Positions 5,601 through 14,600 of a DNA stretch of 64,000 nt are shown in pieces (the stretch's first letter is position 1; every line of letters begins with the position of its first letter). This DNA comes from Escherichia coli (lineage in GTDB: Bacteria; Pseudomonadota; Gammaproteobacteria; Enterobacterales; Enterobacteriaceae): NCBI RefSeq assembly GCF_013122565.1, contig NZ_CP053258.1, one strand, 5' to 3'. Position numbers: made by a program.

Positions 5601-8600
5601 GATAAGCATGAAGAACGGGAATATCTGCCAGCTCGCGTGATTCTATTTCAATCATCTGTCTCTCCTTTTTGTCTGGTATGACATGAAGAAATCCTTAGCA
5701 CAAGTTTCTGTTGGCGGTATTAGTTCATAATGTTGAGATGTGGATTACGCTTTCGTCACGTTTTCATTCGAAAATCGCGTACCAGGTAACAATTCGGGAA
5801 CATTCCCCCAAAGTTAAATTAATAAGGCACTACACTATGGTTAGCAGGAAACGTAATAGCGTTATTTACCGGTTTGCCAGTTTATTATTGGTGTTGATGT
5901 TAAGTGCCTGTAGCGCACTGCAAGGTACGCCACAGCCAGCACCACCAGTAACCGACCATCCGCAAGAGATTCGCCGCGACCAGACGCAAGGGTTACAGCG
6001 AATAGGTAGCGTAAGCACGATGGTTCGGGGTTCTCCGGATGACGCATTAGCAGAAATCAGAGCGAAAGCTGTCGCTGCAAAAGCTGATTATTACGTTGTC
6101 GTCATGGTGGACGAAACCATCGTCACAGGACAGTGGTATTCACAAGCCATTTTGTACCGTAAATAAATCAGAAAACTTACATAGTCAGCTTTACATTGCT
6201 TTGCGTCCCTATGCGTTTACCTGTGCACAATAAATTACCGGCTGGAAGCCTGGGCGTTTATTACCGCGATGGAATGCCCTGCAACATGTGGGGAAATGAA
6301 AAATGGAGCTGACGATGAAACAATTACTTGCCTCACCCTCGCTGCAATTAGTGACTTATCCTGCGAGCGCCACGGCACAGTCTGCAGAATTCGCCAGTGC
6401 TGACTGCGTGACGGGCCTGAATGAAATAGGTCAGATCTCAGTTAGCAATATTTCAGGGGATCCGCAGGACGTGGAACGTATCGTGGCGTTAAAGGCCGAT
6501 GAACAAGGTGCGTCATGGTACCGCATTATTACCATGTACGAAGACCAGCAGCCTGATAACTGGCGTGTACAGGCGATACTGTATGCATGAGTGTCATCTA
6601 CAGCAAATGAACAATGCCGGATGCGGCGCGAGCGCCTTGTCCGGCCTACAATTTTCACATATTTCATTGAGTTAATCGAAACCAGCGTCGCATCAGTCGT
6701 ATACGCTTACACACACACTCCCCCCGTCGCCCGCAGCAATAAATCATTCTGGATCTGCTCTGACAACCGTACGCCGCCGCGCGTATCTAACATCACCTGG
6801 CACCACGCCTGTGCCATTGGCGGAGAGGCATATTTCAACATTTGCGCACCGCAGCCCAGCAGGAATAGCTGATGAGTAATCTCTCGCCCCAGTTCTTCAG
6901 CAGGCTTACGCAGCTGCTGCTGTAAACGACGAACCGCGCGATCAAAATAGCGATCCTGCCCTTTCACTTCCACAAATGCTTCCGACAATAAGTCGTATAC
7001 GCCCGCTTGCTTATTGAGAACGCGCAGCACATCCAGGCACATAATATTGCCGGAACCTTCCCAAATACTGTTTACCGGCATCTCCCGGTAAAGCCGCGGC
7101 AACTCGCTCTCCTCGCAATAACCAATGCCGCCCAGCACCTCCATCGCTTCGGCCACAAACGGCATACCTCGTTTGCAGATCACAAATTTTGCCACAGGCG
7201 TAAATAAACGCGCCCACAGGGCTTCTTTGGCATCGGCACGCCGGTCCCACGCTCGCGCAAGACGAAACAGCAACGCCGTTTGCCCTTCAAGCTGAAGTGC
7301 CATGCGACTTAAGACATGACGCATAAGGGGCTGTTGGATCAATGGATTACCAAAAACATGGCGTTGATGCGCATGATAAATCGCCAGCGAGAACGCACGG
7401 CGCATCATGGCATGGCTACCCAGGGCGCAATCAAAACGCGTCATCCCACCCATTTTCAGGATCAGACGAATTCCTTCCCCTTCCTGCCCCAACAACCAGC
7501 CAATGGCATCCTGAAACTCCACTTCGCAACTGGCGTTAGAGCGATTACCCAGCTTATCTTTCAGCCGCTCGAGGCGAATCGCGTTACGTTGTCCGTCAGG
7601 CAAAAAGCGCGGCACAAAAAAGCAGGACAGACCGCCCGCGGTCTGCGCCAGCACCAGATGCGCATCGCTTTGCGGCACCGAGAAAAACCATTTATGCCCC
7701 ACCAGCCGATAAGAGCCATCTTCCAAACGCTCTGCACGGGTGGTGTTGCTCATGACATCGGAACCACCCTGCTTTTCCGTCATTCCCATGCCAATCAACA
7801 AACCGCGTTTTTGCCCACCTGGCAATAAGTGAGAATCGTAGCGATCGCTCAGCAGCGGGGTGGTCCAGTCCTGAAACGGCGCGGGTAACATCTGTAACAG
7901 CAATGGCGTGGCGGCAAAGGTCATGGTTATCGGACATAACGACCCTGCCTCAACCTGTGCGTGCAACATAAAACGCGCCGCGCGCGCCACAAATGCGCCG
8001 GAGCGAGCGTCTTCTTCCCAGGCCAGATTGTGCACCCGATTGGTACATAGCGCCTGCATCAGCAGGTGCCAGGCGGGGTGAAAACGCACATCGTCCAGAC
8101 GGCGTCCTTGCGCATCGTAGCGCAATAATTCAGGCGGATTCACATTCGCCAGCCGCCCCAGTTCAAGGGATTCAGCCGTTCCTAACTGCTGACCAATACT
8201 GGCTAGAAAATCGCTATCCCAGCCAGCACCTTCACGCGTTACCGCTTCGCAAAGCGCGCCATCAGACAGGTATAAGTTGCTGTTATTTAATGGTATAGGT
8301 TGATTAAAAACGGTGTGAGTTTGCCAGTGCACTGTGTCTCCCTCCATCAATGGCAGTCACCATTAGTATGGTCACTGCCATGGATTCATGACAGAAAGAG
8401 ATTGCTAAAACATTCTTATCCAGCAATGTAATGCGGAACGAAACGTGAGGTGTCTTTGGTGATCAGTGTGTTATCTTCACGGATCCCCATTCCGCACGCT
8501 TCATCATCGACAATCCAGCTACCGATGAGTGTGTAGCTATCGCCAAACCGCGGCAGAGGTTGAAACGCCTGGTAGATCATCGGTTCATCGGCGTAATCAC

Positions 8601-11600: not shown

Positions 11601-14600
11601 GTGCACGCTGCATGGCTTCAGTGGCTTTAACGACTTCCATTTGCTGCTCAAACTGAGCGATACGCTGCGCTGTCGCTGTAACTGCTTTTTCCACGCCATC
11701 ACGGGAGACTTCCAGATTCGACAACACTTGCTCTTCAGCGGTAATGAGATTCTCAAGGCGCGCGATTTCTTCAGCAACTTCGTTAATCAACGACGGATTA
11801 ACGTTCTTGCTTAACGCTTCCAGCGCACGAGCTTCCAGACTGGCTTTGCGCTCACGTAAATCTTTCAGCTTATCGTGACTTAACTTCACCCGCGCCAGCA
11901 GATCAACGCGAGATTTTCCGGCTTTATCGAGTTCAGCTTTAGCGTCACGAATATGCTGTTCCAGCATGCGCACACCCTGGGTTTCTTCAATGGATTCTTC
12001 CGCCTGAGAGATAAACGATTTCCCCAGCGTAAATAAACTTTTTAAAATTCCCATAAATACCCGTCCTTGTAATTAGTGTGAATATTCTTCTGTAATTTCA
12101 GCCAGATCCAATGCGTTATCTACCAGCGAGGTTATCTCAAGCAGGATATCTTCAAGAGAAGATTTAAGCGATAACGCACCGAAAACAATGTAATACTCTT
12201 CTTGTTGTACGCTGGAGATTCCTACCGATGACAACGGCATCATCTTCTGATTTCTTAATAAGAAGGTATTAAATTCATCTGGATTGCTGATACTACTTAC
12301 CGGACAAATAAAGGTTTCGATAATCATTTGGCGGGAAGTAAAAAGAATATTGATTTGCAAATCGCCATAATCATTCATTTTAATAATTAATGCGTTCTCG
12401 CTATTTGTTACATCAATATTTTGTTCATGTTCAGTTTGCAGCGCCGTCGCCAGCGCCAACGGATTCCATGTCATATATTATTCCATATAGATTAAGTTTA
12501 AATATTAATAAAATGAATATTTGCAGTACATAATTATCTTACCAGCTATAGACAAAAAAAAACCATCCAAATCTGGATGGCTATTAAGAAGAACCAAAAA
12601 TTTAACGCTATGCATACGATAAAAAATGCGCCAGTCTACATACACTGACGCTAATGATTAGTCACTACAAGTCTAACGACCGCTTCCACAACATAAAATC
12701 AAACTGTTCGAGTTTGTCTGCCTTCACGACGTAGTCCTTACTGGCAGTTTCAATAACTTTTTCAAATAATTCTCTACTCACATCTTCCAGCGGAGTGCCG
12801 TCAATCACTGGGCCACAGTCGAAATCAATCATGTCAGACAATCGTCTGGCAATCGTGCTGTTGGTGGATATTTTTAACACCGGAACAATCGGGTTACCGG
12901 TGGGCGTACCAAGACCCGTCGAGAAGATAACCACATTACATCCTGCTGCTACCAATCCGGTTACCGCGTCCACGTCATTGCCCGGAGTACACACCAACGA
13001 TAATCCACTATCGGGCATAGGCTCAGCGTAATCGCATACACTCACAATTGGCGCTCGCCCGCCTTTTTTCGCTGCTCCGGTAGATTTTATTGCGTCAGTA
13101 ATCAACCCATCCGCGATGTTGCCAAAACTTGGGTTATCCGCAATGGTGGTATCGAAAAAGTTCGCTGTCTTTTCGTAGCCTTGCATTAGATTGAGGAACT
13201 TTTTTTTATCCTCAAGATTAATACAACGCTTAACCATATCACCTTCTGCCCCACATAATTCTGGAAATTCTGCTAACCCGGAAGCGCCACCAAGCGTTGT
13301 CAACCAGTCAGAAACCAGCCCCATTGCAGGGTTGCCGGAGATACCAGAAAAACCATCGGAACCACCACACTTCATCCCCACTTTGAGACAGGAAAGAGGG
13401 ACCTCTACTCTTTCTGTCGGCTTCACCGCTTTCATTGCCGCGAAAGTCTGCTGTAAAGCGGTCTGCATCATCCGCTCTTCGCTGTCCCACTCCTGTTGGA
13501 GAAAGTAGAGCGCAGGTTTATCAAATTCAGGATTACGTCTCGCCAGCGCATCCTTAAACATTTTCTGCTGCGCTTTTTCACATCCTAAACTGAATACCGT
13601 CATACCGATTACATTCGGATGGTCAGCATAAGCAGCTAATACATCGCACATAGTTTCACAGTCTGAAGTTGCACCACCACAACCACTGGTGACCGTAATA
13701 CAGCGAACACCTTCAATATGCGGAAACATTCTCGCGGTTTCGATCAGTTCATCGCTACCGGACGTCAGATTAAGAGCAAACTTTTTCAGTGAGTTATTGG
13801 TATAACCCAAAGCATCATTCAAAGCATTGGTTAACTTACTGACATTACGGTTCTCGCAAAATACCAATGGAAAGACTAACCAGTAACTGGCAGTACCCAC
13901 TCTGCCATCGTCACGGACATAACCTTTAAAAGTGCGGGTGCTCCAGTCAGAGACATCCGGTGCCTGCCAGTGGTAGGGTTCAACATCCTCCAGTGTGACA
14001 GGAGCTGCATAGTGGCGAATATTATCAACGGTAATCGCTTCTCCCTTAACGATGGGACGCGTGGCCTTGCCAACTGGCGTACCGTACATCGAAACAATGC
14101 CATCCAGAGGAATATCTTGCGTCGCAAACTTATGTTTAGCCTTAACATCAGTTACTAACGTTATGTTGTCGTCATCCCACGAGTACGATTCTCCAGCGTG
14201 CAGGTCTTTCAACGCGACAATGAGATTATCGTTACTGTCGATACGTAATATTTTTTGCATAATCATATTCTTCCAGTCAGATGTTCAATCTTATTAACTG
14301 TATGCTTTTGCTGCCTGTTGGCTCTTTTGCAGCAATCCAATCAATAATGCGCAGCCGATGGTAATTACAGACAACGCCATCAATCCGGCGATGCTGCTAT
14401 CCATTGCCCGATCAACCTCAACACGGATAAGAGGAGCAAGGAACGAGCAGAAAGCGCCCATCGTGGTGCAAAAACCGATCCCCGCAGCCAGTGCCGGACC
14501 AGTAAGAAGTTGTGGAGGGAAAGTCCAGAATATTGGCTGTACTGAGAGGAAACCAACCGCACTTAAACAAAGTGCACCAATCGCCACAACAGGCCCCGCA

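Follow-up and report, generated by a model that had tools for sequence, protein, structure and literature searches.

Why an enzyme that joins spermidine to peptides should be encoded alongside a PspA-type membrane protein is the question raised by yjfIJKLMC, six genes at positions 8416-12474 of a 64,000-nucleotide stretch of Escherichia coli DNA (contig NZ_CP053258.1 of assembly GCF_013122565.1; the whole stretch is called the window below). Our answer, given in outline, is that the operon is probably a reduced form of a gammaproteobacterial seven-gene envelope-maintenance system made of two coupled modules.

Gene content of the locus and what is in print

An open-reading-frame (ORF) listing, together with the RefSeq annotation of the closest genome, showed that the interval is filled by the following six minus-strand genes, for which the annotated starts of yjfL and yjfC were taken (a mechanical ORF finder extends yjfL to a GTG at 10709 and yjfC to a TTG at 9594).

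12073-12474, minus strand: yjfI, DUF2170 protein of a CesT/Tir-like chaperone fold family, 133 aa (Pfam 9.3e-45)
11356-12054, minus strand: yjfJ, divergent PspA/IM30-family protein by its profile match, 232 aa (Pfam PspA_IM30 5.3e-58)
10646-11305, minus strand: yjfK, DUF2491 protein, soluble and beta-rich, 219 aa (Pfam 4e-71)
10230-10628, minus strand: yjfL, DUF350 inner-membrane protein, 132 aa (Pfam 2e-33)
9582-10220, minus strand: yjfM, DUF1190 protein, 212 aa (Pfam 1e-17)
8416-9579, minus strand: yjfC, GSP_synth-family ATP-grasp enzyme that ligates spermidine to peptides, no amidase domain, 387 aa (Pfam 4.4e-149)

The genes are separated by 18 bp (yjfI-yjfJ), 50 bp (yjfJ-yjfK), 17 bp (yjfK-yjfL), 9 bp (yjfL-yjfM) and 2 bp (yjfM-yjfC), in agreement with an earlier, sequence-only reading of the window that had described six close-packed minus-strand genes with gaps of 2-50 bp. 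The family names given in that reading (DUF2170, PspA/IM30, DUF2491, DUF350, DUF1190 and a glutathionylspermidine-synthetase-like ATP-grasp enzyme) were borne out by all six Pfam matches, and every protein far exceeded the Pfam gathering score. Of 5426 complete E. coli genomes, 5425 contain a 4.4-kb block carrying the locus (best identity 98.4%), and the six are real, conserved genes, chance ORFs being excluded.

The best characterized member is YjfC, which is nearly identical over residues 1-387 to PDB 7UK6_A (E = 8e-274; crystal structures 7UK6/7UK7); its paralogue YgiC is represented by structures 7UK8/7UKA, and the K-12 RefSeq product name of b4186 is 'peptide--spermidine ligase YjfC'. Pederick et al. 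(2023, Biochemistry 62:899) are cited as having demonstrated peptide-spermidine ligase activity for both YjfC and YgiC, and Sui et al. (2012) as reporting glutathionylspermidine synthesis to be absent for YjfC. Reviews likewise describe the two proteins as lacking glutathionylspermidine synthetase activity and as joining spermidine to peptides, with the physiological substrate stated as unknown. YjfC has its ATP-grasp synthetase domain in common with GspSA and trypanothione synthetase and aligns to their C-terminal synthetase part, its 387 residues covering only about 253-626 of these 619-652-aa enzymes, so that the N-terminal CHAP amidase is absent. GspSA, by comparison, has 619 residues with an N-terminal amidase, whereas YjfC is reported to ligate spermidine to peptides and not to make glutathionylspermidine.

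A phenotype has also been published, in that the growth defect of a tolC mutant is aggravated when yjfMC is lost along with ygiBC. The ygiB-ygiC genes of the tolC operon are a paralogous pair of DUF1190 and ligase genes, in which YgiB ends in Gly-Gly and ygiC starts 5 nt later, and this tolC-mutant phenotype is common to both pairs. The ygi pair differs in having no PspA, DUF2170, DUF2491 or DUF350 genes beside it, and YgiB has the lipobox LAGC where YjfM of the window has a Trp.

Ravi et al. (2024, mSystems, PMC11237479) described the architecture as a whole: in their operon class a CesT/Tir-PspA dyad is joined by a K+ channel, an ATP-grasp ligase and the DUF350, DUF1190 and DUF2491 proteins. 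They propose a polyamine link to PspA-based membrane dynamics. The window has the same DUF2170, YjfJ-type PspA, ligase, DUF350, DUF1190 and DUF2491 genes as these CesT/Tir-PspA polyamine operons (their third group), but where a K+ channel with a cytoplasmic ligand-sensing domain is listed for that group, the window has a 50-bp gap with a hairpin. The sequence-only reading had suggested a module for membrane stress whose ATP-grasp ligase would modify a partner or a small molecule, and this idea agrees with that comparative genomics. Its statement that no member had an assigned biochemical function still describes five of the proteins and fails for YjfC, given the published ligase activity, the crystal structures and the RefSeq name. 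The operon is in this sense already known: its architecture has been published, as have a phenotype, the activity of one enzyme and two related crystal structures.

A chaperone-PspA dyad and a DUF350-DUF1190-ligase triad

The operon is composed of two modules, a dyad and a triad, in fixed order. In the dyad, YjfI matched Pseudomonas aeruginosa BacA (PDB 8Q8O_A) with E = 6.3e-17 over residues 3-128, and its NCBIfam BacA match was partial. The structure of BacA is CesT-like and its gene adjoins that of the PspA-like BacB in P. aeruginosa (PMC10948618), and DUF2170/BacA has been classed as CesT-like (PMC10948618, PMC11237479). Like yjfIJ, the bacABCD cluster (PA3732-PA3729) therefore places a DUF2170 protein (BacA, 8Q8O) ahead of a PspA-like one, but its downstream genes include no ligase, DUF350, DUF1190 or DUF2491 gene, and a sigma-54 site is reported there (PMC10948618).

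The second dyad protein, YjfJ, matched PF04012 with E = 5.3e-58 and 196.7 bits (cut-off 33.9) over profile positions 1-220 of 220. Its residues 2-19 (GILKSLFTLGKSFISQAE) are amphipathic, with a hydrophobic moment of 0.45 that was matched by 23 of 2000 shuffles, and are conserved in relatives. Judged by its sequence, YjfJ is a deep branch of the PspA/IM30 family; Rychel et al. modelled it on a Vipp1 template, and by analogy with PspA it would be active at the membrane. The system to compare within E. coli is pspABCDE/pspF: YjfJ resembles PspA in its full-length PspA_IM30 match and amphipathic N-terminal helix, and a stem-loop follows the PspA-type gene in both operons. The yjf operon differs in having no homologues of PspB, PspC, PspD, PspE or PspF, no recognised sigma-54 promoter and no detectable pairwise similarity between YjfJ and PspA, and in place of PspF or PspBC the partner is a CesT-like protein.

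In the triad, YjfL is strongly hydrophobic at residues 7-25 and 75-93, is annotated as 'inner membrane protein' in K-12 and falls in PHROG 29907. YjfK, encoded between the two modules, has a confidently predicted beta-rich structure (pLDDT 91.8), and its family has many invariant charged residues. These features suggest the following outline. YjfI would serve as a CesT-like dimeric chaperone or regulator that binds YjfJ, and YjfJ, as a divergent PspA/ESCRT-III-type protein, would by analogy with PspA bind and stabilise the stressed inner membrane. The second module would consist of the DUF350 membrane protein YjfL, the presumably membrane-anchored, Cys-rich YjfM with its Gly-rich basic tail, and the cytoplasmic ATP-grasp enzyme YjfC, which couples spermidine to the carboxylate of a peptide at the expense of ATP; YjfK is the soluble beta-rich protein encoded between the two. 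An ancestral K+ channel gene would have stood after the PspA gene and been lost in Escherichia. The operon is essentially silent in laboratory K-12 and is turned on by a (T)9->8 slip that accompanies growth at a lethal temperature.

The ancestral channel is suggested by the gene order of relatives. The order I-J-K-L-M-C is constant across enterobacterial loci, as seen in a genome-wide scan with a DUF2491 alignment whose patterns were too strict and which returned 20 enterobacterial loci only, more distant contexts coming from single look-ups. Eight enterobacterial loci (three from Citrobacter, two from Atlantibacter, and one each from Serratia microhaemolytica, Buttiauxella and Enterobacter) contain an extra 355-aa gene between yjfJ and yjfK, with a GFGD selectivity-filter motif and an Ion_trans_2 match, while the six-gene form without it is found in Escherichia (the window and K-12), Kosakonia, Phytobacter and one distant metagenome. 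Because the same order including the channel (DUF2170, PspA_IM30, channel, DUF2491, DUF350, DUF1190, GSP_synth) is present in Hahella, Methylotuvimicrobium and Corallincola, we take the seven-gene form to be the ancestral one, from which Escherichia, Kosakonia and Phytobacter lost the K+ channel. In some E. coli strains about 1 kb, apparently IS1, is inserted between yjfJ and yjfK, where other genera have the channel (L005 3068-4088). In Hahella (L033 2647-2946) and Corallincola (L035 2560-2826) there is, upstream of the seven-gene operon and divergent from it, a small DUF6471 gene that E. coli lacks and that may be a dedicated regulator.

The modules are also found apart. The DUF350-DUF1190-ligase triad occurs without the other operon genes in loci L024, L023 and L028, and YjfL, YjfM and YjfC have PHROGs families, whereas YjfI, YjfJ and YjfK have none. 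A ligase homologue is present in 141 phage records. A DUF1190-like lipoprotein ending in Gly-Gly is encoded directly upstream of a GSP_synth ligase on a phage-like metagenomic contig (L027 8001-9759), and the same pair is present in jumbo phage phiRSL1 (L029 2095-3622); in phage OC, a SprT-like gene stands upstream of the ligase in place of the DUF1190-like gene. The ligase gene begins 0-13 nt after the DUF1190 gene in all informative loci. Apparent DUF1190+GSP_synth 'fusion' proteins were considered as Rosetta-stone evidence and rejected, being frameshifted E. coli yjfM alleles that run into yjfC.

This separability raises the alternative that two or three independent units simply lie side by side, namely the yjfIJ dyad, yjfK, and a yjfLMC triad whose product would be a small soluble metabolite, a peptide-spermidine conjugate, with membrane repair uncoupled from the ligase. 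The triad without the dyad in the three loci above and in phages is consistent with such a view, as is the dyad in other contexts, both in the P. aeruginosa bac cluster and in other operon classes of Ravi et al. (PMC11237479). We nevertheless regard this explanation as doubtful, since Enterobacterales, Hahella, Methylotuvimicrobium and Corallincola all keep the full order, with genes that overlap or lie very close together, and such constancy would be difficult to account for if no function were shared.

The phage homologues of YjfL, YjfM and YjfC also bear on a second alternative, that the operon is an anti-phage or abortive-infection defence module, for which the neighbours of distant copies could be cited: one (the P0161 locus) lies beside nSTAND and SIR2-TIR genes, and the Corallincola copy lies beside Imm49 immunity genes (L035 8257-10034). 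This is highly improbable, however, as no PADLOC family matched the six proteins beyond coiled-coil noise, the operon is core-genome and syntenic and not island-borne, and the phage copies are classed as auxiliary metabolic genes. We retain the two coupled modules of an envelope-maintenance system as the preferred reading.

Expression of the operon

Four sequence elements in and upstream of the operon bear on its expression.

12554-12582, minus strand: hairpin with a 9-bp stem and then a T9 run, 80-88 nt 5' of the yjfI start codon (ATG)
12475-12553, minus strand: AT-rich leader/promoter region of yjfI, with only two substitutions relative to K-12
11324-11350, minus strand: hairpin with a 10-bp stem, within the 50-bp yjfJ-yjfK gap
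9585-9593, minus strand: last three sense codons of yjfM (TGG GGA GGC), doubling as the yjfC Shine-Dalgarno GGGGAGG

The upstream hairpin is terminator-like (RNA fold of -12.3 kcal/mol, z -3.1) and is identical in K-12, where it lies downstream of rlmB; the final 110 nt 5' of yjfI as a whole are almost the same as in K-12. In the supplementary table of Rychel et al. (2025), the activating mutation is given as '4410053 DEL (T)9->8 rlmB, yjfI intergenic (+47/-80)', and this published (T)9->8 mutation falls in the T-run of the conserved hairpin upstream of yjfI. The slip may either weaken a terminator and permit read-through or alter promoter geometry.

No convincing sigma-70 or sigma-54 consensus was found in the 79 nt at 12475-12553, where the promoter scan returned no minus-strand site, and no sigma-54 spacing GG-N10-GC was seen on reading 12475-12582. 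The ORF listing and annotations gave no pspF-like gene adjacent to the operon, and no Rfam family matched in 8000-13000. The sigma-70 and terminator scans were not above shuffled controls (7 sites vs 6.7 and 7 vs 4.7, respectively), and from the terminator scan only hairpins with independent support are reported here. One of these is the yjfJ-yjfK hairpin, which occupies the position of the K+ channel gene of relatives, folds with -17.1 kcal/mol (z -3.1) and keeps its stem in K-12, with only the loop changed. It is a candidate partial terminator or attenuator that could reduce expression of the distal genes.

In the data of Rychel et al. (2025), yjfIJKL form one iModulon that is silent across the compendium and strongly induced in heat-evolved strains. 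Since this iModulon comprises yjfIJKL without yjfMC, all six genes may not be co-transcribed, and the single operon assumed in the sequence-only reading is borne out only in part: yjfIJKL are grouped by expression, whereas yjfMC are not mentioned there, one paper (PMC10948618) speaks of a 'yjfIJ operon', and a hairpin separates yjfJ from yjfK. An expression module limited to yjfIJKL, this hairpin, and the phenotype that yjfMC have of their own alongside ygiBC in the tolC mutant would all suit independent units, but the iModulon crosses the boundary proposed for them by grouping yjfK and yjfL with yjfIJ. Terminator-like hairpins with T-runs were also seen inside the 3' end of yjfL (10260-10280) and the 5' part of yjfM (10076-10096); these might account for the absence of yjfMC from the module, although the number of such sites was not above shuffled controls.

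Several observations weigh against the operon as one envelope-maintenance system. The expression module without yjfMC, together with the hairpin between yjfJ and yjfK, means that the six genes may be neither a single transcript nor a single machine. The operon is pseudogenised in Enterobacter sp. EA-1 and S. diarizonae, and frameshifted yjfM alleles circulate in E. coli, so that it is dispensable. Comparison of YjfJ with E. coli PspA gave a BLASTP E of 2 and, with a shallow profile, an hhalign probability of 0.2%, and no PDB sequence match of YjfJ to solved PspA/Vipp1 structures appeared even at E<=10; because the pairwise, shallow-profile and PDB comparisons gave nothing, the family assignment rests on the Pfam profile alone. 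Finally, the heat benefit of the operon is correlative and comes from hypermutator lineages (Rychel et al. 2025).

The surroundings of the operon differ from those in K-12 on one side. Downstream, aidB follows after 83 bp. Between rlmB and the conserved hairpin 5' of yjfI there is a four-gene island, from 12665 to about 17700, that is absent from K-12 and encodes an IclR regulator, a DapA-family enzyme, a major facilitator superfamily (MFS) transporter and a UxaA-family hydrolase. Its MFS gene is intact in the window (433 aa) and has an internal stop in the closest complete genome (L036 10150-15132).

The DUF1190 tail as a candidate ligase substrate

The protein encoded immediately before the ligase is YjfM. 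It begins with a basic N-terminus and a hydrophobic anchor; next come an acidic domain in which four Cys (C77, C87, C111 and C118) are invariant and a short second hydrophobic segment, and last a tail, basic and rich in Gly and Ser, that ends ...SRGGYGRSSSARGHWGG, with a WGG terminus. Among 88 full-length DUF1190 representatives from an exhaustive HMMER search (one per 50%-identity cluster), the C-terminus is Gly-Gly in 71 (81%) and Gly-Ser in 14, and it lies at the end of a conserved tail, T-x-S-R-G-G-F-G-S-x-x-A-R-G-S-W-G-G, whose RGG[FY]G...WGG motif is present in YjfM. The pattern of a basic N-terminus, acidic Cys domain and basic tail was observed in all 40 members tested, with median charges of +4, -7 and +7; the corresponding values for YjfM are +11/-9/+8. 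Between the Cys domain and the tail, the second hydrophobic segment spans about 15 residues with near-invariant P129 and G133 and a family mean hydropathy below 1.

The anchor itself varies. A lipobox Cys is present in 91% of the DUF1190 representatives, while YjfM of the window has Trp56 (codon 10053-10055) in its place, with FLIVKGWSE around this codon as against FFVLKGCSD in K-12. In E. coli and Shigella the Trp56 allele and the Cys56 allele are both frequent, with at least 1000 contigs carrying each, and E. coli is thus predicted to be dimorphic for lipidation of YjfM.

As to the identity and action of the spermidine conjugate, both of which we infer, a tentative and on present evidence rather unlikely reading is that the C-terminal Gly of YjfM (and of YgiB) is the natural substrate of YjfC (and of YgiC). 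It would be amidated with spermidine to give a flexible basic tail tipped with polyamine, which could bind to anionic lipid, act as a gate for the ancestral K+ channel or be a tether. The glutathionylspermidine-synthetase enzyme family activates the C-terminal Gly carboxylate of glutathione, and it is because of this chemistry, and because the ligase gene always directly follows the DUF1190 gene, that the tail Gly is proposed as the natural substrate. In line with such a role, the in-vitro substrates of YjfC are peptides, the Gly-Gly or Gly-Ser end stands behind a conserved tail in most of the family, YgiB ends ...RSMGG, and the short phage phiRSL1 homologue ends ...AGG; the ligase gene is the next gene in all informative loci, including the phage-like contig and phiRSL1. 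The charge pattern seen in 40 of 40 members and the conserved second hydrophobic segment fit an in-out-in topology, with the tail in the cytoplasm.

This topology is, however, open to doubt, as the second hydrophobic segment is too short and weak for a confident transmembrane helix, and the tail may therefore be periplasmic, beyond the reach of an ATP-dependent enzyme; YgiB, moreover, has been predicted in the literature to be a lipoprotein of the outer membrane. When YjfC was modelled with AlphaFold2 as a fusion with the tail, no docking was predicted, with pLDDT above 90 for YjfC and 24-35 for the tail, a weak negative given that the fusion ((G4S)4 linker, last 53 YjfM residues, 61-row alignment with 11 paired rows) came without a control construct or coordinates. 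The Gly-Gly conservation itself may partly be at the nucleotide level. In the window, yjfC starts 2 nt past the yjfM stop codon, with a Shine-Dalgarno made of the final Trp-Gly-Gly codons of yjfM, and 12 of 16 loci have GGA as the penultimate Gly codon, where it forms the Shine-Dalgarno of the ligase gene; on the other side, the phage-like contig L027 retains Gly-Gly though its Shine-Dalgarno is separate. Internal WGG repeats in some tails also suggest a binding motif and not a unique terminus.

The operon belongs to the E. coli core genome and has been kept in at least four gammaproteobacterial orders, and it is silent in about 1000 laboratory conditions yet among the strongest transcriptional changes in cells evolved to a lethal temperature. 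It brings ESCRT-III/PspA-type membrane maintenance together with polyamine conjugation, subjects between which there are few links. If the tail of YjfM is the substrate, a two-gene cassette of bacteria and jumbo phages would put a polyamine on the C-terminus of a protein of ribosomal origin, a modification that, to our knowledge, has not been described in bacteria, and in this operon polyamine tagging would be linked with a PspA-type protein of membrane repair and, in the ancestor, with a K+ channel. The target of YjfC, if found, would explain the constant pairing of a spermidine ligase with a Cys-rich membrane protein, in bacteria as in large phages, and would give a function to four DUF families.

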